Assembly: GCA_963667725.2 (NCBI GenBank)
Contig: CAXXHO010000003.1
Coordinates: 608,001-672,000 of the forward strand
Source of the DNA: Treponemataceae bacterium
Lineage (GTDB): Bacteria > Spirochaetota > Spirochaetia > Treponematales > Rectinemataceae
Length of the DNA stretch: 64,000 bases
Direction: 5' to 3'
Notes under the pieces: model-generated
What the model was told of the DNA's origin: nothing
The model's input: the letters and a program-made list of their open reading frames with translations, nothing else
The model's database searches: none
Shown: piece after piece, positions 7,050 to 57,717 of the stretch
Numbering within the stretch: the stretch's first letter is position 1
Layout: each line of letters opens with the position of its first letter
Position numbers and translations under genes: made by a program

Positions 7050-8285
7050 ATGTACGGTTTGATCAAGGAAGAGCTTAGGCAGAAGCTTTCGGCCATCAGG
7101 ACGGAAGGTCTCTACAAGGATGAACGCGTCATAGCGACGCCTCAGGACGCGGCGATCAGGGTCGTAGGCGGCAAGGAAGTCCTCAATTTCTGCGCCAACA
7201 ACTATCTCGGCCTCGCGAACAACGCCGAAATCCGGGCGGCGGCCAAAGCGGCCATGGAGGAATGGGGTTACGGAATGGCTTCCGTCCGCTTCATCTGCGG
7301 CACCCAGAGTCCCCATAAGCTTCTTGAACGCAGGGTCGCGGAGTTCCTCGGCACCGAGGACGCCATTCTCTTCTCATCCTGCTTCGACTCCAATGGCGCC
7401 GTCTTCGAGCCTCTGCTGGACGAGAACTGCGCTATCATAACCGACAGCCTCAACCATGCCTCCATCATCGACGGCGTCAGGCTCTGCAAGGCCAAACGTT
7501 TTGTTTTCAAGCATGCCGACATGCGCGATATCGAAGAAACCGACCCCGACACCGGCAAGGTAGCCAAGGGTCTCGAGCACTGTCTGAAAGAGGCGTCCGA
7601 CGCGAGGATCCGCATGATCGCCACGGACGGCGTCTTCTCCATGGACGGCGACATAGCCGATCTCAAATCCATCTGCGCGCTCGCCGAGAAATATGACGCC
7701 CTCGTCATGGTGGACGATTCTCACGCTACCGGATTCACCGGGGCGACGGGGCGCGGCACCTGGGAACATTGCGGCGTGAAGGGAAGGGTGGACATCATCA
7801 CCACCACCTTCGGCAAGGCGCTGGGCGGGGCTTCCGGCGGCGTGATCGCCTCCAGGAAGGAAATTGTCGAGTACATGAGGCAGAAGGCCAGGCCCTATCT
7901 CTTCTCCAACACCGTGGCGCCCTCCATCGTGGGAGGCACGCTGAAGGCTCTCGAGCTTCTCAGCGCGTCAACCGCCCTGAGGGACAAGCTCGAGGCGAAT
8001 ACCAGGCGGTTCAGGGAGAAGATGACGGCGGCGGGCTTCGACATCAGGCCTGGCGTCCATCCTATTTGCCCTGTCATGCTTTACAACGAAAAACTGGCCC
8101 ACGACATGGCCGATGCCCTTCTCGAGGAAGGCATCTATGTCATCGGATTCTCTTTCCCCGTCGTGCCGAGGGGCAAGGCCCGCATCAGGGTGCAGATTTC
8201 CGCCGCCCATGAACCGGGGCAGATCGACTTCGCCGTGGAGGCGTTTACCAAGGTGGGAAGAGGGCTGGGCGTGATCAAGGCATGA
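7050..8285 (+). CDS. kbl: Glycine C-acetyltransferase (2-amino-3-ketobutyrate CoA ligase)
   Basis: [34 protein letters not shown] and [11 protein letters not shown] motifs; ATG 7050 follows GGGAGG RBS. Confidence 0.93.
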
Positions 8286-8384
8286 GGGAACTTTCCCGCG
8301 CCTACTTTACGTTCCGGAAGGTTTTCGCTATATTTTCTATTCGAACCAACATTTCATCATTTCGCAAGACCGAGGTTAATTCTA

Positions 8385-8645
8385 ATGCCTACGTATGAGT
8401 ATGAATGCCGAGAGTGCAAGCTTACTTTCGAAAAGTTCCAGTCCATGTCAGAGGATCCTGTCAAGGTCTGCCCCAAGTGCGGCGGAGCCGTCAGGCGTCT
8501 GATCGGCGGCGGAACCGGCGTCATCTTCAAGGGCAGTGGTTTCTATATCACCGACTCCAAGAAGGCGGGCAGCGCGTCCACGAAGAGCGCCGCCAAGAGC
8601 TGCGAGACCTGTCCGGCGAGCACTACCAAGAAGGAGAGCGCCTAG
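8385..8645 (+). CDS. FmdB-family zinc-ribbon protein
   Basis: MPTYEYEC..C…CPKCGG…FKGSGFYITD signature. Confidence 0.88.
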   Translation: MPTYEYECRECKLTFEKFQSMSEDPVKVCPKCGGAVRRLIGGGTGVIFKGSGFYITDSKKAGSASTKSAAKSCETCPASTTKKESA

Positions 8646-8648
8646 AGC

Positions 8649-9539
8649 CTATACGCCTTTCTCCAGCTGGGTTTTGGCCTCTTCCAGGGGCATGTCGAGC
8701 AGTTCGGGATTGGCGATGAGTCTGTAGAAGACCGAGGCCGAGCGTGCGAAGTAGAGGCCGTCGGAAATCCTTTCGTCCACCGTTACCTTGAAATTTATGA
8801 AGTGGTGTTTCGTGCCGAAGGGGCCGTGGTGGCTGTCCTTCTGCGTGAGTTTGCCCATTACCACGAAGAAGCTGATGGTGCCCCATTCGTAGAGATGGTG
8901 GAAGGGCGCATCGAGTCCGATGCTACCCAGATTCGCGAAGAAGAGGGTGGCGTAGAAGGGGTCCACCTCGATGAGGCCTTTCGGGGCAAGATTGATGCGG
9001 TCGAGAATCCTGTAGAGGCCGATAAGCAGAGCCTTGGCGCCGGGAATGCTGTGGGCGAGCTTGGCTATCTTCTCGCCGTCCCCGCCTTCCCCAACCTCCC
9101 GCACATAGTTGATAGCCTTGTTAACCTTCAGCGTCACCTCGTCGAGATCGTCCTCGGGCTTGAAAACAACCTTGGCGCTTCCTTCCGGGGCTTCTTCCGT
9201 CATTTTCTGCTTCACGATGAAGGACATGGTTATGTCGTTGTGCTCGTAGAGGGCCTTGCCGTGTATGAAACGGTTTAGTTCAGGCCTGATCGCCACGGTC
9301 CGCACCATAGCAGCCAGGACGAGGGAAAACAATGAATATCGATCCTGGCCCGAATTCTCGCTCTGATTCTTCAGTCCCGAGTTTCTCGCCCTCACGAAGC
9401 GCAGGATATTCTCGACATCCACGTCCTTCTCATAGTACACGGCCGATTGATTGCGTCCGCGCATCATGTAGGGCATAAGCGCGTTGAGCGCATGGGCTTG
9501 TCGGACTTTTTTGCCGTCTGGTCTGTCGATGAAAAGCAT
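8649..9539 (-). CDS. Stand-alone 2-oxo-acid dehydrogenase E2-like acyltransferase catalytic domain protein
   Basis: PELNRFI, NLGSIG and VDERISDG (variant of DHRxxDG); no lipoyl domain. Confidence 0.7.
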   Translation of the reverse strand: MLFIDRPDGKKVRQAHALNALMPYMMRGRNQSAVYYEKDVDVENILRFVRARNSGLKNQSENSGQDRYSLFSLVLAAMVRTVAIRPELNRFIHGKALYEHNDITMSFIVKQKMTEEAPEGSAKVVFKPEDDLDEVTLKVNKAINYVREVGEGGDGEKIAKLAHSIPGAKALLIGLYRILDRINLAPKGLIEVDPFYATLFFANLGSIGLDAPFHHLYEWGTISFFVVMGKLTQKDSHHGPFGTKHHFINFKVTVDERISDGLYFARSASVFYRLIANPELLDMPLEEAKTQLEKGV

Positions 9540-9695
9540 GGAATGAACTATATAGCAGCGATACGCTTAGGTAAAGTATCGAAAGGCGCCGCGTCCCCGG
9601 GCTGGAAAATTTGGTTTTTTTCGCTCGCGCGGGGATTTTTTTCGGTTTTCCTGTGTTAAACTCAATATATCTCTTTTTTCAGGAGGCACCACGTT

Positions 9696-10754
9696 TTGGA
9701 TGATGCGCCGAAAAACGCTAGATCCTTAAGAGTATTGATTCTTTATTCCCGTTCTTCCAATCCCACAGTGGCCATGGCCGATGATCGGCGCTTCGGCCGG
9801 TTCGCCTCGATCCTTGCCGACGGCGGATTCACCGCCAGGCTGGCATCCCCCGACTCCATCGCTATGCTTGACGCCCTCATCGCCGAATTCGGCCCCGACC
9901 TTGTTTTCAGCGCTCCCGATCATTTGCCCGAGTCCTCCCCGATGCCCGCCGGCGTCACCTTCCCGGCGAACGCCAGGATAAACGTGCACGGATGGCTGGA
10001 GGGAAGGGGAATCCCCTATGTGGGCTCTCCTCCCGATATCATCGAGCTCGCTCTTTCCAAGACGGCGCTCAAGGAAAAGTGGGTAAAGAACGGGATTTCC
10101 ACGCCCGAGTTCCTTTCCTTGAATTCGGGTTCCGATCTTTCCGCCGTGGACAGATCCTCGATTCCCCCCTTTCCCTGCATCGTGAAGCCGTCGGACGCGG
10201 GCAATTCCCGCGGCATCACGAAGGATTCTGTCGTTTTCGACATGAAAGGCTTGGCCTCCCTCGTCGCCAGCCTGGGCAGGGATTTCAGGCATATCCTCAT
10301 TGAGCATTACCTGGGGCTCTACCCCGATTTCCGCGAAATCACCTGCGCCTGCATAGGCAACGGCGAGGAGAGGCTTCTCCTGCCCGTGGAAATTGTCTTT
10401 ATCAACCCCCCCGGCATTCATGTGGTCACGACAGAGGACAAGGACGGCAGCAGGACGGAAGCCCGGCCGATAGCTGACGGCTCCTTGCGCGAGGCGGCCC
10501 AAGCCTTCGCGGCCGCGGCTTTTTCTTCGGCGGGCGATATCAGGGATTATTCCCGCTGCGACATGATTTTCGCCGGCGGGAAATTCTGGGCCATCGAAAT
10601 AAACGGCCAGCCCATGATTCCCGACGCGTGGTTCGAAGCCTGCGCGCGGCAGGCTCATCTCTCGGAGAAGCAATATATCCTGGCTATCATCGAGGCTGCC
10701 CTCAGCCGTTCGATCCGGGCTTATCAGCCTTTGAGGAGGCGATACGATGTTTAA
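9696..10754 (+). CDS. ATP-grasp ligase, D-Ala-D-Ala ligase-like
   Basis: GIPYVGS, IVKPSDAGNSRGI, LIEHYL, SRCD and EINGQP ATP-grasp motifs; TTG start after AGGAGG. Confidence 0.8.
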   Translation: MDDAPKNARSLRVLILYSRSSNPTVAMADDRRFGRFASILADGGFTARLASPDSIAMLDALIAEFGPDLVFSAPDHLPESSPMPAGVTFPANARINVHGWLEGRGIPYVGSPPDIIELALSKTALKEKWVKNGISTPEFLSLNSGSDLSAVDRSSIPPFPCIVKPSDAGNSRGITKDSVVFDMKGLASLVASLGRDFRHILIEHYLGLYPDFREITCACIGNGEERLLLPVEIVFINPPGIHVVTTEDKDGSRTEARPIADGSLREAAQAFAAAAFSSAGDIRDYSRCDMIFAGGKFWAIEINGQPMIPDAWFEACARQAHLSEKQYILAIIEAALSRSIRAYQPLRRRYDV

Positions 10755-12636
10755 AATTTCCAGCCATGACGTTTTCGGCCTCATTCATCCTTCCATAGAC
10801 GTGCATACCCTCGGGATGCTTTCCTTCTCCCAGGTTCTGGAGGACTGCGGCATAGAATCCTGCATCGCCGACGCCGACGTAGGCGGCGATATCGAGTCCC
10901 TTTCCAGGCATGAGGGCGGCACCGTGCTTCGCGCCTGGCTTCGCAACAGGAGGATTTCGGTGCTCGGCTTCAGCTACAGGCTGGACCCTGCCGATGCCCT
11001 CCATCTTTTCGAAGTCCTGTATGAATTCCTCCACCGCGAGAAGATGCTTCTTTCGGACGGCGGTCCTGTCAGAGGGCTGTTTTTCGCCGGGCTTCCGGAG
11101 GCCTGCGAGGCGGTTCTCGCCAGGCACCACGATCTGACGGGCGTCTTCCGGGGCGATGAAGCGCCCCACGAGACCATGCGTATTCTCGGCATCGATGAGG
11201 ACATGATGCCTCAAACCCTCTCCGAAGGGCTTAAGTACGATGCCGCGAGGATGGCCTTCGGCGAGTCTCTCGTGAAGGAAGGCAGCTACAACGCGGTGAA
11301 GCCCGTCAACAGATCAGACTCTCCGGGATTCGGCTCATGGGGCGACAGGCTGACGGCGAGGATTGCCCACGGTACGGCACGAAAGCTTCCGCCCCTCATG
11401 CGCGTCCATGCCGGCCCCTACCTGCCCGACAGGAAGGAAGCGGTCAGGCTTTTTACCGAGTGGGTGAAGCGGCTGGCCTCGGGCGGCTATCTGGATATTC
11501 TCTCGATAGGCACTTCCCAGCTCAGCCAATCCAATTTCGGGGAAGACTGGGAAGGCAAGATCAATGGCGGCGGCGTTCCCATCGCCAGCGCCGCCGAGTT
11601 CGCGGCCGTATGGAAGGTGGCGCGCCCCATGCTGGTGCGTACCTACGCGGGCACCAAGGATGTGCCTGCCCTCGCCAGGATGTACGAGGAAACGATCGAT
11701 ATTGCCTGGCACGCGCTTTCCCTGTGGTGGTTCTGCAAGCTGGACGGAAGAGGCCCCAATTCGGTGCTCGATAACCTGGGCGAGCATTTTCAGGCCATGC
11801 GCTATATAGCCTCGACGGGCAAACCGCTCGAGATGAACGTGCCGCATCACTTCGCTTTCAGGGGCACCGACGACCTTGGCTATATCGTATCGGGCTATAT
11901 CGCGGCCAAGGCCGCCAAGCTTCAGGGCATACAGAATCTCGTGCTGCAGATAATGTTCAATACGCCTAAATACCTCTGGGGCATCCAGGACCTCGCCAAG
12001 GCCAGGGTTCTTCTCAGGCTGGTAAAGGGGCTCGAGGACGGGAATTTTAGGGTCTTCCTCCAGCCGCGGGGGGGCTTGGATTATTTCTCGCCCGAACCCG
12101 AGCGGGCCAAGGCCCAGCTGGCCGCGGTGACCGCCATGATGGACGACATCGAGCCTTACGACGAGACCAGCCCTCAGATCATCCATGTGGTGAGCTATTC
12201 TGAAGCCTATAAGCTGGCCGATCCGCCTGTCATCGAGGAGAGCATCAGGATAACGCGCCATGCGCTGCGGGAGTACCGGCGCCTCAGGCGCGAAGGCGGC
12301 GTGGACGACATGGCGTCGAGCGCCGAGGTGGCCGCGCGAGAGAAGATTCTCCTGGACGATGCCTTGCGGATGATACGGGCCGCGGAAAGGCTCATTCCCG
12401 ACACCTATTCTCCTTATGGGCTCTACACGATGCTTTCTTCAGGTTTCTTCGCCCTTCCGTGGCTGACTTCCTGCCGCGAGGAATTCCCGGCCGCGAATAT
12501 TGGAACCCGACTCTTGAACGGGGGAATGCATGCCGTCGACGTGGAAGGATCGCCTCTTTCCGTGGAAGCGAGGATCGAGATGGCGAGAACCCATCTGGCA
12601 AAAACCAGCGGCGGAGGAGATCGTTATGGCGCCTGA
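10747..12636 (+). CDS. Cobalamin-binding protein (N-terminal DxHxxG B12 domain plus large uncharacterised C-terminal domain)
   Basis: SIDVHTLG (DxHxxG), GFSYRL (SxL-type) and FFAG, typical of base-off/His-on B12 domains; 629 aa; no radical-SAM CxxxCxxC. Confidence 0.75.
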   Translation: MFKISSHDVFGLIHPSIDVHTLGMLSFSQVLEDCGIESCIADADVGGDIESLSRHEGGTVLRAWLRNRRISVLGFSYRLDPADALHLFEVLYEFLHREKMLLSDGGPVRGLFFAGLPEACEAVLARHHDLTGVFRGDEAPHETMRILGIDEDMMPQTLSEGLKYDAARMAFGESLVKEGSYNAVKPVNRSDSPGFGSWGDRLTARIAHGTARKLPPLMRVHAGPYLPDRKEAVRLFTEWVKRLASGGYLDILSIGTSQLSQSNFGEDWEGKINGGGVPIASAAEFAAVWKVARPMLVRTYAGTKDVPALARMYEETIDIAWHALSLWWFCKLDGRGPNSVLDNLGEHFQAMRYIASTGKPLEMNVPHHFAFRGTDDLGYIVSGYIAAKAAKLQGIQNLVLQIMFNTPKYLWGIQDLAKARVLLRLVKGLEDGNFRVFLQPRGGLDYFSPEPERAKAQLAAVTAMMDDIEPYDETSPQIIHVVSYSEAYKLADPPVIEESIRITRHALREYRRLRREGGVDDMASSAEVAAREKILLDDALRMIRAAERLIPDTYSPYGLYTMLSSGFFALPWLTSCREEFPAANIGTRLLNGGMHAVDVEGSPLSVEARIEMARTHLAKTSGGGDRYGA

Positions 12637-13777
12637 CAAAAGCTGGCAGCAAGTCTGCGATATCCTGAAGGATGTGAAGGCTAAGGGGAAAAAAGCCCTC
12701 TGGTGCGTGGTGGGCGCCGGCAACGGAGGAATTTCCATGGCCGGCCATCTGGGATTCATGGGCTTCCAGGTCCGTCTTTACAACAGGACGGACGAGCACC
12801 TCAACGCCGTGCGCTGGTATGGAGGCATAGAGCTCGAAGGCGCGGTGGAGGGATTCGGTCCAGTCAGTCTGGCCACCTCATCCATCCAGGCCGCGGTCGA
12901 GGGTGCCGACGTCGTAATGATCGTCACGCCTTCCACGGCCCATTATTCCCTGGCCGCTGCCATGGCTCCCTTCCTCCATGACGGGCAGGTTGTCGTCCTG
13001 AATCCCGGTAGGACGGGAGGGGCCCTGGAATTCCGCGCCGTGCTGAAGCAGTCGGAATCGCGTGCCAGGCCGATCATCGTGGAGGCGCAGACCTTCATCT
13101 ATGCATCGCGGGCCGTCAGCCGCCACAAAGGCCACATCTATAAGATCAAGAACGGCGTCCCCGCGAGCGCCCTGCCTTCGCACATGACGCCCGACGCTCT
13201 CGCCGTGCTGAATCAAGCCTTTCCCGAGTTCACCGCCGGATCCAACGTGCTGGCGACGAGTCTCGAGAATATAGGCGCTGTCTTCCATCCCGCCCTCACC
13301 CTGCTCAACGCGGGCTGGATAGAATCGACTGAGGGGAATTTCGAGTATTACATTCAGGGCATGTCGCCCGCGGTCGCGAAGGTTCTCGAGAAGATTGACG
13401 ACGAAAGGCTGGCGGTGGCGAGAGCCCTGGGCATACGCACCGTCTCGGCCAGGGAATGGCTTTACCTCACCTATGACTCGTCGGGCGACACCCTCTGCGC
13501 GGCGATAAAGGCCACCACGGGCTATTTCGGGATAAAGGCGCCGCCTACGATCAACCATCGCTATATATGGGAAGACGTGCCCATGAGCCTCGTGCCGATG
13601 TCATCCATAGGAGCGATGCTCGGGATACCGACACCCACCATAGACATGATCATCACGCTGGCCGAGCTGATGAACGGCAGCGACTACAGGGCCGTCGGAA
13701 GGACGGTCGAAACGCTGGGCATCAAGGGAATGAGCGTCGAGCAGATACACCGACTCGTCACCGAAGGCGACGAGTGA
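12626..13777 (+). CDS. NAD/NADP opine (octopine/nopaline) dehydrogenase family protein
   Basis: VVGAGNGG Rossmann motif, LNPGRTGGA, FHPALTLLN and HRYIWEDVPMSLVP; ATG 12626 follows GGAGGAG. Confidence 0.88.
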   Translation: MAPDKSWQQVCDILKDVKAKGKKALWCVVGAGNGGISMAGHLGFMGFQVRLYNRTDEHLNAVRWYGGIELEGAVEGFGPVSLATSSIQAAVEGADVVMIVTPSTAHYSLAAAMAPFLHDGQVVVLNPGRTGGALEFRAVLKQSESRARPIIVEAQTFIYASRAVSRHKGHIYKIKNGVPASALPSHMTPDALAVLNQAFPEFTAGSNVLATSLENIGAVFHPALTLLNAGWIESTEGNFEYYIQGMSPAVAKVLEKIDDERLAVARALGIRTVSAREWLYLTYDSSGDTLCAAIKATTGYFGIKAPPTINHRYIWEDVPMSLVPMSSIGAMLGIPTPTIDMIITLAELMNGSDYRAVGRTVETLGIKGMSVEQIHRLVTEGDE

Positions 13778-13787
13778 GGAGGAGCCT

Positions 13788-14480
13788 ATGAATTTTACCG
13801 ATATTTCCAATTCCATCGCATCGTTTTTCAATACGCTGCCGCCCATAGCCGGCGCCTTTCTGACCTTTCTCTTGGGCTGGCTCGTCGCCCGATTCGCCCG
13901 CTTCTTCACGCCTAAACTGATGACGCTCCTGCGCTTCGACCGCTTCAGCGAAAAGACGGGGATCAACGGTTTCCTGAAAAAGGGGAATGTCCACTATACG
14001 CCGTCGAAGCTGCTGGGGATTCTCGTCTATTGGTTTTTGATGATCCTGACGCTTTCGAACACGGTGGCGAGACTCGACAAGGGGGCGGCTTCGTCCATAC
14101 AGGTATGGATCAGCTCTGCCCTGCCCATACTGATAGCCACGGGCATAATCGTGGTGATAGGCATGGTCGTCGTCACCTTCCTGTCGAATTTCTTCATCAC
14201 GATAGCCAAGAACGGCGCCGTCCACAATCCCGTCCTGATAGGCAAGGCGATCAAGTATATAGGATTCATCGTCGTGGCGACGATGGCCCTCGACCAGCTC
14301 GGCTTCGGTCAGACCATCGTGAGCACCATCTTCATACTCCTGTTCGCCGCGATAGCTCTCGGCCTGGCCCTTGCCTTCGGCCTTGGCTGCAAGGACATGG
14401 CGAGAAAACTGATGGAAGACTTCATAAGAAATATCCAGGAGAAGGAGAGGATCAAGCACGGCACGGATCTGGAAGGCTAG
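13788..14480 (+). CDS. Membrane protein with TM-helix repeats (mechanosensitive-channel/CmpX-like)
   Basis: Five to six TM segments and ALAFGLGCKD motif; strong RBS GAGGAGGAG. Confidence 0.7.
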   Translation: MNFTDISNSIASFFNTLPPIAGAFLTFLLGWLVARFARFFTPKLMTLLRFDRFSEKTGINGFLKKGNVHYTPSKLLGILVYWFLMILTLSNTVARLDKGAASSIQVWISSALPILIATGIIVVIGMVVVTFLSNFFITIAKNGAVHNPVLIGKAIKYIGFIVVATMALDQLGFGQTIVSTIFILLFAAIALGLALAFGLGCKDMARKLMEDFIRNIQEKERIKHGTDLEG

Positions 14481-15175
14481 GCTCTCGCTTCGGCGATGAG
14501 GGCCTTGGCCAGCAAGGTCATGGGATCGACGAGGGGGACCTTGAGAAGTTCCTGCGAGAGGACGAGGGGCACTTCGGTGCAGCCGGCCACGATGGCGTCG
14601 GCGCCTGCCCGCACGAGCTTTTCGGCCGCCTGGATGAGAAGGGAGCGCGGATAGTCTCCCCTGTTTCCCGCTTTTATGCCGTTTTTCCCGTAAATGGCTT
14701 CCATGACGAGATTGGTCTGGGCTTCGTCGTCGGGCCATAGGATCGAATACTCGGCAAGGGAAGTCTCATAGAGCCTGGCGGCCTTCGATCCCGCCGTAGC
14801 GAGGATTCCCAGCCTGCGCGCCTCGGGGTAACTGGCCCGCATCGCCGCGGCCGTGGTCTCGAGGGCCGAGATGAATCGGAGACCTGAGAGCTGCCTCAAT
14901 CGCGGAAGGAAGTTGTGCGCCGTCATGCAGGTTATGCCGACGATGTCGGCTCCGGCCGCCTCGAGCCTCCTGAGCGAAGCGAGCATGGCGGGGACGGGAT
15001 CGGGACCCTTGCCCAGTATGTTCGCCGTTCTGTCGGGGATGGAAGGATCGCATTCGATGATGATATGCGCGTGATCCTGATCCCTCTCGGCCTTGTCGAA
15101 AGAGAGCAGTTTTACGAAAAAGTCCGATGTGGCTTCGGGGCCCATGCCGCCGAGAATCCCGATGGTTTTCATCAT
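14477..15175 (-). CDS. Aspartate/glutamate (amino-acid) racemase, PLP-independent
   Basis: IGILGGMGPEAT, IPDRT, TCMTAH and GCTEVP two-Cys motifs; start at 15175 or 15172 after AAGGAAGG. Confidence 0.9.
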   Translation of the reverse strand: MMKTIGILGGMGPEATSDFFVKLLSFDKAERDQDHAHIIIECDPSIPDRTANILGKGPDPVPAMLASLRRLEAAGADIVGITCMTAHNFLPRLRQLSGLRFISALETTAAAMRASYPEARRLGILATAGSKAARLYETSLAEYSILWPDDEAQTNLVMEAIYGKNGIKAGNRGDYPRSLLIQAAEKLVRAGADAIVAGCTEVPLVLSQELLKVPLVDPMTLLAKALIAEARA

Positions 15176-15365
15176 TCCTTCCTTATTTTGCTCAATGAAA
15201 ATGATTTTCATGCCCGCGCGTTCCCGAAGTGTACAGCATTCGCTGGCTCATGGGCAATAAATAATATTTGCGTTATTCGGCTTTTCAGTTTACCATTCAC
15301 TTTGGCGTTCGTCCCCGTTTCGCCGTCGGGCGAGCGCCTGTTCTAAACAACCAAGGAGGATTTTC

Positions 15366-16676
15366 ATGGCAGAAAAGAAGGAAAAGAAGGGCATTTTCGA
15401 TTGGTATTTCAAGACCAATCTTCTCGCCCGCATTCTTGTTGGCCTCATACTTGGTGCCGTCGTGGGCATCGTCCTGGGATTTTTCCCCGATTCGGTAAAG
15501 CCCTTTGTCGATAATTCGAAATTCTTCGGCGACCTCTTCATCCGACTGCTGAAGATGATCGTGGTGCCAGTCATCCTCTTCTCCCTGATCGCGGGAGCGG
15601 CAAGCATCGATCCCGGCCGCCTCGGCCGCGTCGGCGTCAAGATCATGGCCTATTATCTGTTCACGAGCGCCCTCGCTGTCGCCATCGGCCTGGTATTTGC
15701 CAATATCCTCCAGCCCGGAGCCGGCTTCAATATCGTCGGAGCGGCCGGAGTCCAGGGAAAGGCGGCCGCCTCGCTGCCGATCTCGCAGATACTCCTCAAT
15801 ATCGTCCCGACCAACCCCATCGATTCCCTCGCCAAGGGTGACGTTCTCCCGATCATCTTCTTCGCCGTGGTCTTCGGGATCGCCCTCTCCTATATCAAGG
15901 GCGCCGAGAACAAGAGCCTGGCCAAGGCGGGCGCGACCCTCCTGGACGTGGTGAACGCAGCCGCCGAAACCATGTATAAAGTGGTTTCCGGCATCATGCA
16001 GTACGCGCCGATCGGCGTATTCGTCCTCATCGCCCAGGTGTTCGCCCAGCAGGGACCCAAGGCCATCGGACCCCTTCTCATCGTCACCCTGACCGTTTAC
16101 ATCGGACTTCTCGTTCACCTCGTGGGCGTCTACGGCGGATTCCTGTCCATCTACAAGCTGGGCTTTCTCAAATTCCTCAAGGGAGCCAATGAGGCGATGA
16201 TTACGGCCTTTGTTACCCGATCCTCGGGCGGAACCCTTCCCATCACGATGCGCTGCGCGGAAGAAAAATTGGGCATCAACCGTTCGATCTGTTCCTTCAC
16301 CCTGCCCCTGGGCGCCACGATCAATATGGATGGAACGGCGATTTATCTGGGCGTCTGCGCCATCTTCATCGGCAACGCCATCGGTCAGCCGCTTACCATG
16401 AGCCAACAGGGCATGGTCGTACTGACCGCGACCCTCGCTTCCATCGGCACGGCGGGCGTACCGGGCGCCGGAGCCATCATGCTCCTCATGGTCCTTGAAT
16501 CGATCGGCCTGAAGGTCACCGAAGGCTCGGCGGTAGCCGCGGCTTATGCGATGATCCTCGGCATCGATGCCCTCCTCGACATGGGACGCACGAGCCTCAA
16601 CGTCACGGGCGACATCGCGGGTTCAGCCATTGTGGCCAAGACTGAAAAAGAACTGGACATGACAAACTGGAAATAA
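15366..16676 (+). CDS. Dicarboxylate/amino acid:cation symporter (DAACS, GltP/GltPh-like)
   Basis: [34 protein letters not shown] and [12 protein letters not shown] motifs. Confidence 0.93.
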
Positions 16677-50058: not shown

Positions 50059-51512
50059 CGCATAACCTCCGCGTTGAACTCGTCGATGAGATCGTCCAAC
50101 GCTTCAACCTGGGCGTGGAGGCCGCCCCAGTAGTTGCGATGGTCATCCCACTGGGCCCTGAGCTCGGCCAGATCCTTGCCCTGCTGCTCGATCCAGGTGA
50201 AGTACTTGAGATTGTGGATACGGCGCTTGTCCACCTGCGTGAGTTCGAAGACATGGTCCACGGAAATTCCGGCGAGCCTGTCCTGGTCCTTGTCGGACTG
50301 GCGCTGGCCGTAGGGACCGCGCTCCGCGTTGAGCTCGTCGAGCCTGGACTGGTACATGGTCATGGAGTCGGTGAACATGGTGAAGACGACGTCGTGCTCG
50401 TCCATTTCGTAGTATTTCGCCATCTTGATCGCGCCGATGAGGTTGCCGACGCCCGAGATGCCGAGGAGGCCCAGCTGGGCCACGGCCTCGGGATCGGCTC
50501 CCGCGGCGACGAGGGCATCCCGGCCCGCCTTCTCGTTGAAGAGGCGGATGAAGCGGATGGGCAGCTCGTCGTCGACGCCGATGGCGGCGTCGGTGTCACG
50601 CATATTGTGGATCCAGGGGATGTGCTTGTCGCCGATGCCCTCGATGCGATGATCGCCGTATCCGTTTTCGAGGATTGTGGGACATTGGAGAGCTTCAGCC
50701 ACGGCGATCTTGATGTCGGGGAAATGGTCGCGTAGGTAGGAGCCAGATCCGAGGGTGCCGGCCGAGCCCGAGGAGAGGAGAGTCCCAGCTACCCGGTCTC
50801 CAGGCTTGCCCACCTTCGCGAAGACTTCGGCCATAGCCGGCCCCGTGACCTGGTAGTGCCAGAGATTGTTGGGCAGCTGGTCGAACTGGTTGAAGATGAC
50901 GGCGTCGGGGCGCGTAGCTTCCAGCTCGATGCACTTGTCGAAGATTTCCTTGACGTTGGATTCGCAGCCCGGGGTGGCGATCACTTCCTCGGCCATGGTC
51001 TTCAGCCATTCGAAGCGCTCGCGGCTCATGCCAGCGGGAAGGATGGCGATCGAGGGGCAGGAGAGTAGGCGGGAGATATAGGCGCCGCCCCTGCAGTAGT
51101 TGCCGGTCGAAGGCCAAACGGCTTTCTTGGTGGTCGGGTCGAATCGGCCGGTGACAAGTTCGGGCACGAGGCAGGCATAGGCCGCGCCGACCTTGTGCGC
51201 TCCCGTGGGGAACCATTTTCCGACGAGGCCGATGATGCGGGCCTTCGTGCCCGTGATGGCGCGAGGAATCTCGAGAAAATTGACGCCGCCGAAGCCGCCG
51301 CCCTTTTCGACGGGCTCGTTATGCCAGTTGACGCGGAAAAGGTTGCGCGGATGGACGTCCCAGAGACCGATGCCAGATAGCTCTTTCTTCACCGAGGCGG
51401 GAATCTTGGCCGGATCCCTCATCTGGGCGTAGGTGGGAAGGAGAATGCCTTTTTCCCTGCATCGCTGGATATTTTTCTTTCTTTGGATTTCGTTGACGTT
51501 AAGATCGATCAT
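50055..51512 (-). CDS. PLP-dependent fold-type II enzyme (cysteine-synthase-like), function unknown
   Basis: FPTGAHKVGA (PLP Lys), PSTGNY, GSAGT and HRIEGIG motifs; AAGGAG RBS before ATG 51512. Confidence 0.82.
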   Translation of the reverse strand: MIDLNVNEIQRKKNIQRCREKGILLPTYAQMRDPAKIPASVKKELSGIGLWDVHPRNLFRVNWHNEPVEKGGGFGGVNFLEIPRAITGTKARIIGLVGKWFPTGAHKVGAAYACLVPELVTGRFDPTTKKAVWPSTGNYCRGGAYISRLLSCPSIAILPAGMSRERFEWLKTMAEEVIATPGCESNVKEIFDKCIELEATRPDAVIFNQFDQLPNNLWHYQVTGPAMAEVFAKVGKPGDRVAGTLLSSGSAGTLGSGSYLRDHFPDIKIAVAEALQCPTILENGYGDHRIEGIGDKHIPWIHNMRDTDAAIGVDDELPIRFIRLFNEKAGRDALVAAGADPEAVAQLGLLGISGVGNLIGAIKMAKYYEMDEHDVVFTMFTDSMTMYQSRLDELNAERGPYGQRQSDKDQDRLAGISVDHVFELTQVDKRRIHNLKYFTWIEQQGKDLAELRAQWDDHRNYWGGLHAQVEALDDLIDEFNAEVMR

Positions 51513-51741
51513 CGGCGGCTCCTTTGAAACGCATGATGGAAAACCGCAAGCGGTGAGAACTGCCCGCGGCTCGAATAGTATACGACGCATTCCGGAAATT
51601 TTACAGGGCAATTTCCTCGCTGTTGGAGCTGTGCCTTCCTAAGGTTCGACAGATACTTCCGAACCGTCGATATCGAAGTGGTAGCTTCTATACCCTGAGT
51701 TCTTTCTGGTCATGAGCATGGCTGGTGGCTATTTACATATA

Positions 51742-51759
51742 TATTGGCAAATGCTAATA
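51742..51759. promoter_or_regulatory. 18-bp palindromic operator copy (nifU promoter)
   Basis: TATTGGCAAATGCTAATA, overlapping TTTACA-17-TAATAT. Confidence 0.65.
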
Positions 51760-51786
51760 TCAATACAATTATTAAGAGGCTCTACA

Positions 51787-52224
51787 ATGGGAATTGAACA
51801 AGATAAGAACGACAACAATCAGACTACCTTTAGCGGCCCGATTCTCTATTATACGGATAGGGTAATCGATCATTTTACGCATCCACGTAATATCGGCGAA
51901 AAATCCGATGAGAAGGCTGATGGCTATGCCCAGATCGGTGATCCCGGATGCGGTGATCAGATGAAGCTATGGTTTTCCGTATCTGAAGGAAGAATCTGTC
52001 AAATCGCTTTCAAATCCTATGGCTGTCCCGGAGCCATTGCCACGAGCAGCATGCTGACCGTTCTCGCGCAAGGGAAGACAATCGAGGAGGCCATGAATAT
52101 CACCGATGATGATGTCGTGAACGCGCTTGGAGGGATCCCCGAAAACAAGAAGCACTGTTCTCTCCTCGGCGTCCAGGCGCTTCAGGCGGCTATTGCGCGT
52201 TACAAAAGTCGTCTGCAAATCTAA
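51787..52224 (+). CDS. IscU/NifU-type Fe-S scaffold protein
   Basis: HFTHPRNIG, GDPGCGD, FKSYGCPGAIA and KKHCSLLG motifs. Confidence 0.9.
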   Translation: MGIEQDKNDNNQTTFSGPILYYTDRVIDHFTHPRNIGEKSDEKADGYAQIGDPGCGDQMKLWFSVSEGRICQIAFKSYGCPGAIATSSMLTVLAQGKTIEEAMNITDDDVVNALGGIPENKKHCSLLGVQALQAAIARYKSRLQI

Positions 52225-52237
52225 TGGAAGAACCTGC

Positions 52238-52738
52238 TTATAATCGCAGGAAATCAACTGCCGACCAATCGATCTTGCCTTCGGCATCGACCAGGTTCGC
52301 GTCGGCATGGACATATTCGACTTTTCCTACGAACATTTCATGCGAGCCTGTGCATAGCGAGTCGACAACTGTACACTCAATTGATACCGGGCTGTCGAGG
52401 AGAACCGGCGCGTTGACCTTAATGCCATCTCCCAGCGGTATCCCAAGTTTTTCTAGCTTGTTCTCGTCGCGACCGCTGTGGGATCCAAGGTATTGGAATG
52501 TCCCCTTCATCGACGCGGAGACGAGATTCACCACGAAGACGCCTGTTTTTTTGATTATTGAGTAAGAATGGCGCGAAGGAACGATGCCCACCATCACCAT
52601 GGGCGGATCATAGCTGCAGTTGCAGCAGTAGACGACGGCGAGCGCGTTGTTCCTGCCGTCCGAATCCCGGCACGATACGAGAATGGGAGTCTTAGGATTG
52701 AGGACTGAACGGAACGCGGCTGGTTTTTTTTCTTTCAT
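52238..52738 (-). CDS. Flavin reductase-like (flavoredoxin) protein
   Basis: PPMVMVGI…RHSY…FVVNL…GSHSGRD…GSHEMFVG pattern. Confidence 0.87.
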   Translation of the reverse strand: MKEKKPAAFRSVLNPKTPILVSCRDSDGRNNALAVVYCCNCSYDPPMVMVGIVPSRHSYSIIKKTGVFVVNLVSASMKGTFQYLGSHSGRDENKLEKLGIPLGDGIKVNAPVLLDSPVSIECTVVDSLCTGSHEMFVGKVEYVHADANLVDAEGKIDWSAVDFLRL

Positions 52739-52774
52739 GACCAAGGCTCCTTTATGCGTCATCGATGATGCGGT

Positions 52775-53767
52775 TTACGAAGCGCGCCAAGATATTTTTC
52801 CATTATGAACAATTTCGATAATTTTGCCAGAGTCTCTGAGATTTTGGAGAACAGAGTCCAGATTGGTGACACCTCTATGGGCAAGAAGGTTTCGCAGCTC
52901 TCCATCGGTCATAGGATGACGCCGGAGTATGCATGCCGCTGCAAGGAGCGGATCGTTCTCTCCTTCCGCCGAAAAACCGCCATAGCCTTTGGATGGGTGG
53001 AGGACGGTCGCGCTGCTTCCCAGTATCTTCTGAGCCCGCGCGATTCCTTCCTCGTCGCTGGGGCGAACCCAGGGCTCCGCGGGCGGGCGTGTCGGCAAGA
53101 CAAGATGGATCTCATCGGGACCAATCCGCTTGATTACTTCCGACAGATTTTCAAGGGAAGCCTCATCATCGTTGATTCCGGCGATCAGCATAACTTCGAG
53201 CCATAATCTTCCCGTGAACTCGCTTCCGAACGCGACGAGTCCCTCGACATGTCGTTCGAAATCGAAATCAGGGAGAGGGCGGTTAATCCGCCGAAAGAGC
53301 GCTGCGCTTCCAGCGTCCAATGTCGGCAGCACAGCGTCCGCCGCGGAAAGATCTTCCCGTACCTCACTCAGGCTCAACAGGGAGCCATTCGTGATGACGG
53401 CGACAGGCAGCGAGGTCATAACCTTGACCACCCTGATCATCGTTCCAATATCGCGGTTGAGCGAAGGCTCGCCTGATCCGACGAAGGTTATCCAATCGAT
53501 GTCTTCTGCCGATTCCGAGTGTAAAGCTGCTCGCAATTCCTCATACATCATCTCTGGAGGAAAGTACGAGGAACGCGATTTCGTATAAGGCCTTGTCCGG
53601 CCCAGCTGACAATAGACGCAGTTCCAGTTGCAGAATTTGAGAATGGAAAGGTCGGAGCCACCGTAGATCCCTTGAGGGGGAGATGATGCTTCTTTCCTGG
53701 ATATCGGATCTATGCCAAGTGACCGACCAAGGCGACGAGAAGGGACGGGACCAAAAATGCAATGCAA
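52775..53767 (-). CDS. Radical SAM Fe-S oxidoreductase (COG0731-like)
   Basis: FGPVPSRRLGRSLGI, CNWNCVYC, GSGEPSL and ITNGSL motifs. Confidence 0.88.
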   Translation of the reverse strand: MHCIFGPVPSRRLGRSLGIDPISRKEASSPPQGIYGGSDLSILKFCNWNCVYCQLGRTRPYTKSRSSYFPPEMMYEELRAALHSESAEDIDWITFVGSGEPSLNRDIGTMIRVVKVMTSLPVAVITNGSLLSLSEVREDLSAADAVLPTLDAGSAALFRRINRPLPDFDFERHVEGLVAFGSEFTGRLWLEVMLIAGINDDEASLENLSEVIKRIGPDEIHLVLPTRPPAEPWVRPSDEEGIARAQKILGSSATVLHPSKGYGGFSAEGENDPLLAAACILRRHPMTDGELRNLLAHRGVTNLDSVLQNLRDSGKIIEIVHNGKISWRAS

Positions 53768-53779
53768 GTCCTGGCCTGT

Positions 53780-53995
53780 TTACGCTTGCTTTACTTCATC
53801 GCCATCAGAATTTTTACTGTCTTTCGATGATGGCGCTGCAGCGCTTTTATTCCCATGACCGTGACCAAGTCCATTTTTGGCACCGTGTCTTTGTCCACGA
53901 ACAAGAGCTTTCACGGGATCGCCAGCACAAGGTCCCAGCCCCTTGCCTGTTTTCTTTCCAGCACCAGCGGGACCACTCCCGTCAGAATTGGGCAT
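53780..53995 (-). CDS. Small Gly-rich DUF5320-like protein
   Basis: MPNSDGSGPAGAG..TGKGLGPC N-terminus; GGAGG RBS. Confidence 0.7.
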   Translation of the reverse strand: MPNSDGSGPAGAGKKTGKGLGPCAGDPVKALVRGQRHGAKNGLGHGHGNKSAAAPSSKDSKNSDGDEVKQA

Positions 53996-54071
53996 ATATA
54001 CCTCCGAGCGGCTAAAGATACTGAGCGCGTCAACGACGCACATCACACATGTTCGGCATCACCTAATACAA

Positions 54072-54089
54072 AATAAGCATATGCTAATA
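54072..54089. promoter_or_regulatory. 18-bp palindromic operator copy
   Basis: AATAAGCATATGCTAATA within minus-strand TTGATT-17-TATTTT. Confidence 0.65.
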
Positions 54090-54155
54090 ATAAATCAATG
54101 ATTCTCATCATTTCTCAGGGCAACAATTGATATGCTATGTATATGAAAACGAAAA

Positions 54156-54494
54156 TTAGTGCGTACAGAGATTTTTACCGGTGACAAGCGTGTTTTCAAG
54201 GAAGAGCTTTACGATTTTTTCCGCTGTCTCCCCCGGTGCCCCCGCAATGACTTCGATATTGTTCTGTACGAAGAGATTGATGGCGTTTTCGCCCATGCCT
54301 CCAGCAATGACATGAGTGATGCCAAGTTTTGCGAGCCAAGAGGGGTAGAGTCCCGGTTCGTGGGGAGGCGCGACGATCTCTTCTTGTGAGAGAATAGCCC
54401 TGGTGGCTGAGTCGACGGTGATAATTGCGAAGCGTTCACAATGGCCGAAATGAGGCGTAAGATTTCCATTTAGAAGAGGAATTGCTATCTTCAT
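54156..54494 (-). CDS. NifB/NifX-family (Fe-Mo cofactor-binding-like) protein
   Basis: MKIAIP…HFGHCERF…IAGGMG…NLCTH pattern; AAGGAG RBS. Confidence 0.87.
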   Translation of the reverse strand: MKIAIPLLNGNLTPHFGHCERFAIITVDSATRAILSQEEIVAPPHEPGLYPSWLAKLGITHVIAGGMGENAINLFVQNNIEVIAGAPGETAEKIVKLFLENTLVTGKNLCTH

Positions 54495-54504
54495 AGTGTC
54501 TCCT

Positions 54505-55089
54505 TTATAAAGCATAGGTAGAGAAGCGTACGATTGCGGCAGATAGTCCTGACGCCATACATACATCACTTCTCCCGTGGATAAGGCCTCCGCCCACCAT
54601 GACCGCTTTCTTTATCTTTCCCTCATCCCGGACTGAACGTAGGAAGTCAGCGTCCTTCATGGATTGGAGCGTTGTTATACCCTTGAGTCCGATCCCGGGC
54701 ACCGGAGGCATCTTTGCGATCGCGCCGGTGGCGAGTATGAGCTTGTCATAGCCAATCGTTGTGGTTTCTTCGGTTAGGAGGTTTTTATAGGTTACCGTAT
54801 GACTATGGGGGTCGATGCTCGTCGCTTCGCTGTTCGTTCGGGCGTCGATTGCCTTGGCGTTGAGATAGAATTTCGGATTCCTGACGACGCCCGCCGGCGT
54901 GCAGAGAAGCTGATCCCTGTCGTCGAAAGCGCCTCCAACGTAATATGGATAGCCACATGACGCCATCGAAAGATCAGCCCCTTTCTGAAGGACAATGATG
55001 TCGGCGCTTTCGTCCAGTCGCCTCGCCTTGGCCGCGGCCTTGGGGCCGGCCGCCGATCCGCCGATGACCACGATTTGTTTCTTGCTCAT
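54505..55089 (-). pseudogene. Truncated CoA-disulfide reductase/NADH oxidase-like flavoprotein
   Basis: VIGGSAAGPKAA, SCGYPY and LILATG motifs. Similarity ends inside the NADH-binding motif GGGLI (~54581) and the frame then runs into unrelated sequence. Confidence 0.8.
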
Positions 55090-55108
55090 TGTGTTCTCCC
55101 GCATGATT

Positions 55109-55423
55109 TTATTTCGAGGGGACGATGACATCCGCCATCGCCTCTCCAAGAGCTTTTCCCGCTTCCGTGATCTCGACGCGAATGCCCGCGGCGCTTAAAG
55201 CCGCCGCCGCCTTGGGGCCTACCTCGGGCGCGATGAGAATGCCGACTCCTTTCTCTGTGAGGAAAGCCGCGGCGCCCGTGCCGGCGCCATGTTCGGCGTT
55301 GACGCCCTCGTTCGCGGCGATCACGTAGCTCGAGTCAGCGTCATTGTAAAGCGCGAAACTTTTCGCTCGGCCGAAGACCTTCCCGACGGTCTTCCCGTCG
55401 TCTGTCGGTAATGCGTATTTCAT
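55109..55423 (-). CDS. NifB/NifX-family protein
   Basis: FGRAKSF…HGAGTGAA…VGPKA pattern. Confidence 0.85.
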   Translation of the reverse strand: MKYALPTDDGKTVGKVFGRAKSFALYNDADSSYVIAANEGVNAEHGAGTGAAAFLTEKGVGILIAPEVGPKAAAALSAAGIRVEITEAGKALGEAMADVIVPSK

Positions 55424-56352
55424 AATGTCTCCTTTGGGATTACGACATTCAGCTTTTTGCGTTGCATGGATAAAACAACTCCCTTGACAGCTTCGATTGT
55501 AGCTTTGACCTGATCGCCCGCCTCTCCTCCAATCGAAAGCCAGGTGTTCCCCGACTCCTCGGCAGCCCTCAGCGCCGGATCGAAGGGTAATTCGCCTGCG
55601 AGAGGGATGCCGGCTTCCGCGAGCATGATCCGGGCTTTGGAGTCCATATCGGCGCTGAGGCCAGTCTTGTTCATGATGGCGATGGCTTTTCTCTTCATGG
55701 AATGAACGAGGGCGACGAGCCGCCGCGCGTCCTTGATACCCGATACGCTGGCTTCCACCACGATGATGACGAGGTTAGCGCCGCTCAACGAGGCGATGAC
55801 GGGGCAGCCAATTCCGGGCGCGGAATCGACTACAATGACACTGGCCTCGCCGGCTAATTGCTCGGCGCGATCACGGACAACCCGGACGAGCTTGCCGCTC
55901 GTGTCCTCTCCCGGCTCAAGTTCGGCGAACACCAGGGTCGGTCCCCGCGCCGTGTCCGCTACATAGAACTCACCGGCTTGTTTTTCGTACATGGTGACGG
56001 CGCCTTTGGGGCAGGTGTCCAGACAAGCGCCGCAGCGCTCACAGAGTTGGGGCACTATGACATAGGATTGCCTATCGGCGGATTTTCGGATCGCGTCGAA
56101 GCGGCACGCCTGGACGCAACGCCCACAGGCAGTGCAGGCATTGGCTTTGATTGAGAACCCAGGTCCCGCAAAGTAGGGGAATCGTTCCCTTTCCTTCGCA
56201 TCCAGGGCGATCGCTCCATTGGCGGCATCCACGTCGCAGTCGGCAAAGATGCACTTTTCCCCCGGTATAGCCGCGATAGCCACGGCGAGCGCGGCCGCGA
56301 TCGAGGTCTTGCCGGCTCCGCCCTTTCCACTCGCCACACTCACCGTCGTCAT
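55420..56352 (-). CDS. MinD/ParA-superfamily ATPase with inserted 2x[4Fe-4S] ferredoxin domain
   Basis: SGKGGAGKT, DCDVDA, two CxxCxxCxxxC motifs and DSAPGIGCP. Confidence 0.88.
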   Translation of the reverse strand: MTTVSVASGKGGAGKTSIAAALAVAIAAIPGEKCIFADCDVDAANGAIALDAKERERFPYFAGPGFSIKANACTACGRCVQACRFDAIRKSADRQSYVIVPQLCERCGACLDTCPKGAVTMYEKQAGEFYVADTARGPTLVFAELEPGEDTSGKLVRVVRDRAEQLAGEASVIVVDSAPGIGCPVIASLSGANLVIIVVEASVSGIKDARRLVALVHSMKRKAIAIMNKTGLSADMDSKARIMLAEAGIPLAGELPFDPALRAAEESGNTWLSIGGEAGDQVKATIEAVKGVVLSMQRKKLNVVIPKETL

Positions 56353-57233: not shown

Positions 57234-57613
57234 ATTTCCGCTTCTTTGTTTGTCTGAGCGGCTTCGCTTACGGGTTTGCCACCGAGGAGAGCCTCGGTTC
57301 TGCCTAGTTCGGCTAGGAGAAAAGCCCTCTTCTGTTCAAGGATATGGTTCATATCCGCGCCAGCAGTTATTCCGTCGTAGCCGACGGAAAACCAACCGGC
57401 TCCCCTGCCTAGACCGTGTCCATAGCCGGCCTTACAACCGCAGCCAGGACCGTTGCCGCGCCCCATGCCGCGTCTTGGGCCGTTGCCCATACCATTGCCG
57501 ATGCCACGCACATTGCGTGATCCCATCATAGCGGCGCCGCCGCCACAAAAACCAAGTCCTCTCCCTGTCATCGGTCCAGCTCCTTCGGGTCCTCTTCCAT
57601 TGTAATTAGGCAT
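57230..57613 (-). CDS. DUF5320-family Gly/Arg-rich protein
   Basis: MPNYNGRGPEGAGPMTGRGLGFC, GRG repeats and C-terminal coiled helix. Confidence 0.8.
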   Translation of the reverse strand: MPNYNGRGPEGAGPMTGRGLGFCGGGAAMMGSRNVRGIGNGMGNGPRRGMGRGNGPGCGCKAGYGHGLGRGAGWFSVGYDGITAGADMNHILEQKRAFLLAELGRTEALLGGKPVSEAAQTNKEAEM

Positions 57614-57666
57614 ATCAGCCTCCATATTGAAAAATTTAAATAGCGCCAACGGCGCATGCTTGTCAT

Positions 57667-57717
57667 AAATAGCCAATGCTAATTACCTTATATGACGATA
57701 ATAGGCATATGCTCATA
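57667..57717. promoter_or_regulatory. Two operator copies at the DUF5320-MinD operon promoter
   Basis: AATAGGCATATGCTCATA (57700-57717) inside minus-strand TTGACA-17-TATTAT; weaker AAATAGCCAATGCTAATT (57667-57684). Confidence 0.65.

Follow-up and report, generated by a model that had tools for sequence, protein, structure and literature searches.

A predicted B12 radical mutase and an opine dehydrogenase in a candidate salt-stress solute operon of a Treponemataceae bacterium

Organisation of the operon

The analysed window is a 64,000-nucleotide stretch of a contig from a Treponemataceae bacterium (CAXXHO010000003.1). Four open reading frames on its + strand, between positions 9696 and 14480, form a coupled operon with overlaps of 8 and 11 bp followed by a 10-bp gap, exactly as given for the four same-strand genes in the original prediction. 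Each of the four starts is preceded by a ribosome-binding site of the GGAGG type, and the genes are presumably co-transcribed. A TGTGTTAAACT motif (9652..9662, + strand), resembling an extended -10 promoter, is located ~35 nt 5' of gene 1. The hexamer TGTGTT is found in 5/5 aligned upstream regions and the full motif in 3/5; a sigma-70 promoter scan did not call the site. Judged by its sequence and position, the motif may be the promoter of the operon, in which case no space would be left for a riboswitch leader. One terminator-like site lies within the operon, at 12050 (2 sites in the scan vs 6.4 in shuffles). In a sequencing run guessed to be RNA, contigs extend over 9693-10440 and 10445-15135; the strand and a single transcript are not visible in them, and they are given no weight here.

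Gene 1 (9696..10754, + strand; TTG start, 352 aa) encodes a Ddl-like ATP-grasp carboxylate-amine ligase (PF07478, 47.6 bits). The residues K122, K164, E203, R287, D289, E301 and N303 are invariant in 26/26 sequences, and from the E. coli enzyme we take them to be the ATP, Mg and acyl-phosphate residues; together with the ATP-grasp fold they are common to the Ddl/Van family (profile alignment to Ddl, probability 99.3). The omega loop and the N-terminal region, in contrast, are unlike those of D-Ala-D-Ala ligases, and the omega loop also differs from that of the source genome's own Ddl. The possibility of an ordinary D-Ala-D-Ala ligase, considered in the original prediction, does not hold: with 62.9 bits for TIGR01205 (cut-off 245.65) and the true Ddl encoded elsewhere in the genome (350 bits), gene 1 is by sequence not the housekeeping Ddl.

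Gene 4 (13788..14480, + strand) encodes a membrane protein of 230 aa with ~5 hydrophobic segments and two PF05552 repeats (46.6 bits; NF033912, 55 bits vs a cut-off of 100), as in the mechanosensitive-channel TM-helix proteins of the MscS/CmpX type. A complete MscS carries the PF00924 beta-domain, whereas a Pfam search found none here, and the earlier idea of export through a channel-like protein is left as unsupported speculation.

The mutase-like protein and the opine dehydrogenase

Gene 2 (10747..12636, + strand) encodes a single-chain, AdoCbl-dependent mutase-like protein of 629 aa, in which an N-terminal B12-binding domain and a barrel of the GlmE-like (beta/alpha)8 type (residues 197-612, 11335..12582, + strand, aligned to glutamate mutase E) are fused. 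The DxHxxG cobalamin motif is present as D18-V-H20-T-L-G23 (DVHTLG, residues 18-23; 10798..10815, + strand), with H20 kept in 77/78 and 34/38 aligned relatives (two sets). The protein itself has no Pfam match; its relatives match PF02310 and PF06368. The family profile matches B12 domains (2yxb, 4r3u_C and, weakly, 1be1), and the profile of the N-domain also matches methionine synthase and corrinoid proteins. PDB sequence searches with the mutase or with alignment A1 returned nothing relevant, and only the diverse alignment A2 reached the B12 domains. The N-domain folded alone gave a model too poor to be informative (pLDDT 54.5), with a best Z of 5.6 and no B12 domain among its fold matches.

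The fold search with the model of the mutase (pLDDT 88) returned GlmE as the best match (1cb7_B, Z 28.6, rmsd 3.3, 376 aligned), only modestly ahead of lysine 5,6-aminomutase (26.8); Z lies within 24.6-26.8 for the lysine 5,6- and ornithine 4,5-aminomutases. The best 20 matches are all AdoCbl mutases, with no methyltransferase barrel among them. The original prediction had recognised the B12-binding motif and left the choice between mutase and methyltransferase undecided; the motif stands, and the fold now assigns the protein as glutamate-mutase-like.

The DxHxxG domain and the barrel are common to the 629-aa protein and glutamate mutase (GlmS/GlmE, EC 5.4.99.1; PDB 1CB7/1CCW/1I9C/6H9E). Glutamate mutase, however, consists of sigma and epsilon chains, whereas the protein studied here is one chain with 15% identity, is partnered with an opine dehydrogenase, and has no match to TIGR01503 (NCBIfam), for which the source genome likewise holds none. 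MutL/GlmL is the accessory protein of glutamate mutase. A MutL fusion occurs in 3/41 scanned relatives; MutL/GlmL was not found in the source genome (97% complete), which encodes adenosyltransferases of the PduO and CobA types.

The active site was mapped by a profile alignment to GlmE at 15% identity with an uncertain register in strand 4 (probability 94.8 with the profile, 6.3 with the single GlmE sequence). E486 corresponds to E330 of GlmE, which binds ribose (PMC3958899), and is kept in 78/78 and 35/38 relatives; G223 corresponds to G68, which lines the adenosine cavity (PMC10947579), and is kept in 78/78 and 36/38. The positions of R66, R100, R149 and E171 are, by the same 15%-identity alignment, occupied by H221, Q261, Y300 and Ala (A320 or A323). 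Glutamate mutase grips glutamate with an arginine claw, which is thus apparently lost here, so the substrate is probably other than glutamate. Conserved basic residues (R219, R/K298) are located two positions lower along the strands of the barrel, and the conserved R441 and D333/R335 could bind a small substrate.

The aminomutases (5,6-LAM, 4,5-OAM) have a similar DAHTxG motif and a PLP lysine following the cobalt histidine, 11 residues after it in the source genome's own LAM beta. A lysine at this position is found in 0/77 and 0/34 sequences, and anywhere between His+9 and His+13 in 1/77 and 10/34. The 629-aa protein is predicted from its modelled fold to be a fused, single-chain, glutamate-mutase-like AdoCbl radical enzyme.

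Gene 3 (12626..13777, + strand; 383 aa, counted from the ATG at 12626) encodes a CENDH-like opine dehydrogenase, an identity proposed from the start and borne out by PF02317 (165 bits vs a cut-off of 30) and PDB 1BG6 (E 4e-70). The homology to CENDH of Arthrobacter 1C (1BG6) and octopine dehydrogenase (3C7A) is full-length, with the Rossmann and Octopine_DH domains present and the His/Asp dyad and Arg (H221, R312, D317) conserved in 90/90 sequences. The coenzyme loop is Asp-Ile in CENDH and N53-R54 here (N53 in 79/90, R54 in 89/90), which, by analogy with 6-phosphogluconate dehydrogenase, is presumably of the NADP type; the enzyme is predicted to use NADPH. The cleft residues A111 and N198 of CENDH correspond to R129 and G217, of which R129 is family-specific (90/90). 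As R129 is invariant at this position of the active-site cleft, an acidic partner would be expected, and the NADP-type motif suggests the biosynthetic direction. No CntM chain is among the 4 PDB matches at E<=0.001, and scanning the neighbours of the module loci gave no nicotianamine-synthase-like partner; nothing was found in support of a metallophore, one of the products suggested at first.

Conservation and genomic context

The mutase and the opine dehydrogenase occur together in 117/126 loci, and all 9 loci lacking the pair end <=600 bases away on one side. Both genes are present in 34/34 distinct, well-covered loci and constitute the invariant core; neither the ATP-grasp ligase nor the membrane protein belongs to it, both being accessory. 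An amide ligase is found in 22/34 of these loci (ATP-grasp in 13, AsnB-type amidase in 10, both in only 1) and is missing in 12/34, and a TM-helix or MscS gene is found in 19/34. With the pairing conserved across loci, the arrangement is more than chance. The search for co-occurrence in other genomes called for at the outset confirms the operon as both coupled and conserved; from the three-enzyme combination, the mutase and the dehydrogenase are retained as invariant and the ATP-grasp enzyme becomes optional. Gene order differs between loci and therefore does not fix the order of the reactions. The identities of the mutase and the dehydrogenase correlate over 52 loci (Spearman 0.54), but kinship confounds this correlation, which was set aside.

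The mutase family is large (2,863 matches among 7,999 candidates scored) and was found here in Spirochaetota, Chloroflexota and Bacteroidota, in a sample of loci that leaves out Firmicutes; a search of plasmids gave no match. Next to the operon in the window are genes for a racemase and for a dicarboxylate/amino-acid symporter. These two genes (7/31 and 6-7/80 loci), like the 2-oxoacid-acyltransferase-like and glycine C-acetyltransferase-like genes, recur only in close relatives and were rejected as pathway members.

In 14/83 scanned relative loci, a raw count, a riboswitch is located directly upstream of the operon, 13 of the nhaA-I type (Li+/Na+) and 1 of the c-di-AMP type. RNAs of the nhaA-I class act as ON switches that respond to Li+ or, in variants, to Na+ (PMC9646797). 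SAM riboswitches in two loci (L143/L144), downstream and ahead of other genes, and TPP riboswitches in two others (L119/L131), two genes upstream, were left out of this count. An Rfam scan of positions 8000-16000 of the window gave chance-level matches only and no riboswitch, and 0/34 scanned genome-derived loci have one for salt or c-di-AMP; the link to salt is therefore taken over from relatives. Nearby genes include those for MscS, EIIA-fused dehydrogenases, TrkA-C transporters, a Na+/Ca2+ exchanger and Na+/H+ exchangers, one of which has a c-di-AMP receptor domain; genes for mechanosensitive channels and for Na+/K+ recur among them.

The original prediction knew of no characterised pathway that combines the three enzymes; the combination has been in print, Ddl-like neighbour included, since 2009. 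[quoted passage not shown] The Hore_09740/Hore_09750 operon, described in the 2009 genome paper of the thermohalophile H. orenii (Halothermothrix), is reported to comprise this gene pair (PMC2626281); Thermoanaerobacter and Roseiflexus are named there as further carriers. The passages of these papers on the family place it in Firmicutes and Thermotogae, and do not include the glutamate-mutase-like barrel, the active-site changes, the salt riboswitch link or the spirochaete member given here. No characterisation of the family was found in the open-access literature; subscription papers may exist.

Proposed pathway and alternatives

In our reading, to which we give an even chance, the operon makes a salt-stress solute, its product being a candidate, by means of the predicted B12 radical mutase, the opine dehydrogenase and an optional ligase. 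The dehydrogenase, predicted to be NADPH-dependent, would condense an amino acid with a 2-oxo acid, the resulting opine would have its carbon skeleton rearranged by the mutase, and the ligase, where present, would amidate one carboxylate at the expense of ATP. That a small molecule of the opine type is reached by a B12-dependent route, as first suggested, is still the best reading, and among the products then listed the osmolyte is favoured by the salt riboswitches and the channel and Na+/K+ neighbours in relatives. The direction, step order and product of the pathway are what we infer from these data.

A more specific version, rather unlikely on its own, has 2-oxoglutarate or glutamate as an acidic partner, so that the opine would carry an N-substituted glutamate arm, which fragmentation and recombination of the glutamate-mutase type would turn into an N-substituted 3-methylaspartate arm. 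This would take place in a pocket whose free-amine contact (E171) is apparently lost and in which R219 and R/K298 lie deeper in the barrel. Amidation, by the ATP-grasp enzyme here and the AsnB-type enzyme elsewhere, would lower the net charge, and the membrane protein may, speculatively, help release upon osmotic down-shock.

The same module could also run in the other order: the mutase would first rearrange a free acid, either a 2-oxo acid or a larger homologue of glutamate, and its branched product would afterwards be trapped as an opine by the dehydrogenase. The variable gene order leaves room for this, and R441 and D333/R335 could hold a small substrate, but the loss of R66, R100, R149 and E171, with the conserved residues placed deeper, would better fit a larger, N-substituted substrate, and we consider this order improbable. 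No more probable is that the module makes an unusual acidic derivative of an amino acid, which the ATP-grasp enzyme would couple to a polymer of the envelope, such as a surface polysaccharide. The pair does occur with a different ATP-grasp type in L019-L022, L025 (Bacteroidales), L043 and L130, mostly amid glycosyltransferase, Wzy, sugar-transferase or DegT genes, the Bacteroidales loci and one spirochaete locus sitting in capsule clusters; the ligase is Ddl-like, and an alanine racemase is next in 5/80 metagenome loci. This context is, however, limited to 7/126 loci, its distinct ligase suggests secondary recruitment, no glycan genes flank the operon in the window, and other loci are marked by salt riboswitches and channel genes.

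Catabolism, in which the dehydrogenase would oxidatively cleave an imported opine and the mutase rearrange one of the pieces, to be fermented in the way glutamate is, appears still more doubtful: opine dehydrogenases are reversible (PMC6033044), and the racemase and symporter adjoin the operon, but these recur in close relatives only, no substrate transporter or lyase recurs in the neighbour clusters, and the NADP-type motif and ATP-consuming ligases indicate synthesis. A PLP-dependent aminomutase or a corrinoid methyl carrier, as the aminomutase Z scores and the N-domain profile might suggest for the B12 protein, is very unlikely, with the PLP lysine missing in 77/77 and 34/34, no methyltransferase barrel among the best 20 fold matches, and the E330/G68 equivalents and MutL fusions favouring an adenosyl radical.

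Returning to the salt-stress solute, the known adenosylcobalamin mutase reactions, as enumerated in the 2009 survey, are few (MCM, ICM, MeaA, GM, MGM and 5,6-LAM; PMC2667541), and the B12 reaction of the module is likely not yet described. We tentatively suggest, as a possibility short of an even chance, a new class of B12 carbon-skeleton mutase acting on an opine (a secondary amine, without PLP or CoA) in a compatible-solute pathway that would be widespread among anaerobic bacteria and so far undescribed, turned on via Na+/Li+ or c-di-AMP riboswitches and recruited for capsule decoration in some lineages. The family has been an orphan since 2009; with its fold assigned, and with the changes in the pocket and the motifs of the dehydrogenase in view, a small, direct experiment with two soluble enzymes is now possible. 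If true, the proposal would bring to light a new radical reaction of B12 and probably also a new osmolyte of anaerobes.

Operon layout and gene neighbourhoods

The four ORFs of the operon (9696..14480, + strand) overlap by 8 and then 11 bp before a 10-bp gap, which reproduces the overlapping and abutting same-strand arrangement of the original prediction. A GGAGG-type site precedes every start codon, and we infer that the four genes are co-transcribed. The TGTGTTAAACT motif lies ~35 nt upstream of gene 1, is partially conserved among 5 aligned upstream regions, and may be the promoter. The nearest named records are Treponemataceae/Rectinemataceae spirochaetes.

Neighbourhoods were compared across 126 loci (the window, 45 genome loci, and the best 80 of 555 metagenome loci, a selection weighted towards close relatives). 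In 117 loci the mutase has the dehydrogenase on its own strand and no more than 2.5 kb away; the 9 loci without it each end on one side within 600 bases. After removal of mutases >70% identical and of loci with <3 kb on either side (n = 34), the dehydrogenase is present in 34/34, an ATP-grasp ligase in 13 (9 of the window's type), an AsnB-type ORF in 10, either ligase in 22, and both in 1; a TM-helix or MscS gene occurs in 19 and an EIIA-like domain in 6. The four-gene operon is real and conserved, but since the ligases do not match the constancy of the dehydrogenase, the core consists of two genes, with optional and interchangeable amide ligases. Of the combination in the original prediction, the mutase/dehydrogenase pair is constant and the ATP-grasp ligase accessory. 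Another ATP-grasp type is found in 7/126 loci, mostly alongside capsule genes.

Flanking the operon are an Asp/Glu-family racemase (14477-15211, -; above the cysteate racemase CuyB cut-off, 217.8 vs 190) and, divergent from it, a dicarboxylate/amino-acid symporter (15366-16676, +), a pair that adjoins the operon in close relatives only. Also confined to close relatives is a stand-alone protein (8649-9539, -), encoded divergently from the operon, whose 2-oxoacid dehydrogenase acyltransferase catalytic domain scores weakly (28 bits). A DUF5698/DUF2179 protein recurs within the operon in distant lineages (relatives' loci L082:1003-1593, L139:8782-9360, L141:7089-7670), and an alanine racemase lies 3' of it in 5 of the best 80 of 555 metagenome loci (L093, L094, L107, L108, L125). 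One contig (L071/L072) carries two mutase operon copies ~10.6 kb apart. The GC content at 51000-61000 of the window is 0.50-0.55 in most bins vs ~0.60.

The mutase-like product of gene 2

The Pfam search of the gene 2 product gave no match; the Atlas ties it to B12-binding and Met_asp_mut_E clusters. Among 41 relatives scanned, 8 match Met_asp_mut_E at E<=0.01 and four are fusions (P0186, P0230, P0213, P0164; three to MutL/GlmL, one to a glutathione-synthetase-like ATP-grasp). The family is large (2,863 matches in 7,999 candidates scored), with homologues in 22/41 related genomes and 7/301 phylum-wide. Matches containing the barrel occur in 14/201 and 2/301 genomes of the phyla of a Dehalococcoidales and a Bacteroidales record, respectively, not counting numerous matches that span the B12 domain alone.

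The N-domain is assigned as B12-binding, as predicted, from its DxHxxG motif and from the profile of the family, and the fold adds a glutamate-mutase-like barrel to that assignment. The AlphaFold model (pLDDT 88) is closest to glutamate mutase E (1cb7_B; Z 28.6, rmsd 3.3, 376 aligned), followed by lysine/ornithine aminomutases (Z 24.6-26.8) and methylmalonyl-CoA mutases (~19), in a re-ranking of the Foldseek top 1000 that barely tests the N-domain.

GlmE residue numbering transfers because a relative's natural GlmE is colinear with 1CB7. The active site was mapped by column counts and a profile alignment of 38 family members with 7 GlmE sequences (probability 94.8, just 6.3 with one GlmE sequence only). 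The family resembles glutamate mutase in keeping the equivalents of G68 (G223, 36/38) and E330 (E486, 35/38), which bind the adenosyl group according to passages in PMC10947579 and PMC3958899. It differs in the glutamate-binding claw described in part of PMC10947579: R66 is replaced by H221 (36/38), R100 by Q261 (35/38), R149 by Y300 (36/38), and E171 by Ala (A320 per hhalign, A323 by ungapped reading). Conserved instead are R219 (38/38), R/K298 (37), D333 (38), R335 (36), E362 (37), R441 (36) and H480 (37). R219 and R298, two residues ahead of lost-arginine positions, would sit deeper in the barrel than the arginines of GlmE. By these sequence criteria the mutase is of a glutamate-mutase-like class, outside glutamate mutase proper in its substrate-binding residues. 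Another divergent subfamily, judged likewise, is the GlmE relative at L057:1495-2937 (just at the TIGR01503 cut-off, sigma subunit downstream), reading MG at the R66 position and RYG at R149-H150.

The window's genome encodes two cobalamin adenosyltransferases, one lysine aminomutase and 3 cobalamin riboswitches; neither MutL nor GlmE was found in it.

Dehydrogenase, ligases and membrane protein

Gene 3 encodes a CENDH-type opine dehydrogenase (match to 1BG6, E 4e-70). Its coenzyme loop carries Asn in 79 and Arg in 89 of 90 distinct members, a pair that in 6-phosphogluconate dehydrogenase marks the use of NADP(H). H221, R312 and D317 (dehydrogenase numbering) are invariant, and a passage in PMC2924402 describes a His-Asp dyad and Arg in octopine dehydrogenase. 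R129, also invariant, aligns with CENDH A111, listed among the active-site cleft positions in part of PMC6033044. In 15 more distant loci the motifs are kept wherever readable. From the coenzyme-loop and R129 motifs, we infer that the enzyme is used reductively, in biosynthesis, with an acidic substrate.

Around a second opine dehydrogenase of the genome (G000:C5:1012356-1012787), possibly catabolic, lie regulator ORFs and others resembling tripartite transporters; the 12 kb listed there show no mutase. Some opine dehydrogenases carry a PTS EIIA domain at their N-terminus (L103:2384-4036, L121:5307-6995, L077:3760-5466, L152:168-1739), and these are often preceded by nhaA-I and a small ORF of ~115 aa (L103:2011-2352).

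The ATP-grasp catalytic set of gene 1 is intact in 26/26 relatives. Gene 1 is set apart from the housekeeping D-Ala-D-Ala ligase, in agreement with the original prediction, by a score far under the Ddl cut-off, an omega loop unlike that of Ddl, and a true Ddl elsewhere in the genome. Among AsnB-type ORFs >400 aa at metagenome loci, 18/22 are without the N-terminal Cys motif in a simple pattern test (e.g. L071:10737-12074), and the pattern suggests ammonia or another amine, not glutamine, as donor. Gene 4 has two PF05552 repeats; domain searches of it found no MscS beta-domain.

Salt context and proposed pathway

Rfam searches of 83 loci (49 metagenome, 34 genome) gave 13 nhaA-I and 1 c-di-AMP riboswitch, as raw counts without a background rate, two of the nhaA-I loci carrying an identical mutase. 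All 14 are among the metagenome loci, each directly upstream of the operon's first ORF; Rfam found neither class in the 34 genome loci or the window. By eye, a hairpin over the ribosome-binding site closes several nhaA-I leaders. As a class, c-di-AMP riboswitches turn expression off, and high osmolarity lifts this repression. PMC9646797 shows that nhaA-I RNAs turn expression on in response to Li+ and that variants respond to Na+. Several loci are flanked by Na+/H+ exchangers (one with a c-di-AMP receptor domain), a Na+/Ca2+ exchanger, TrkA-C transporters and MscS.

Zhang et al. 2009 (PMC2667541) made an untested prediction of the gene 2 family in 11 bacteria, where it always adjoins a PF02317 gene and has a Ddl or asparagine synthase gene close by, and the H. 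orenii genome paper (PMC2626281) reports the same two-gene operon, its role given as unknown. No characterisation of the family was found in the open-access literature; the pathway is uncharacterised, yet already flagged in print.

A reversed order of steps, with the mutase acting first, is unlikely, and envelope decoration as the purpose is equally so; a catabolic operon is slightly less probable still. That gene 2 encodes an aminomutase or methyl carrier is improbable, the aminomutase PLP lysine at His+11 being absent from the family (0/77 and 0/34). The best reading, to which we give about an even chance, is that NADPH-driven opine synthesis, a B12 radical rearrangement and optional amidation would together yield a salt-stress solute.
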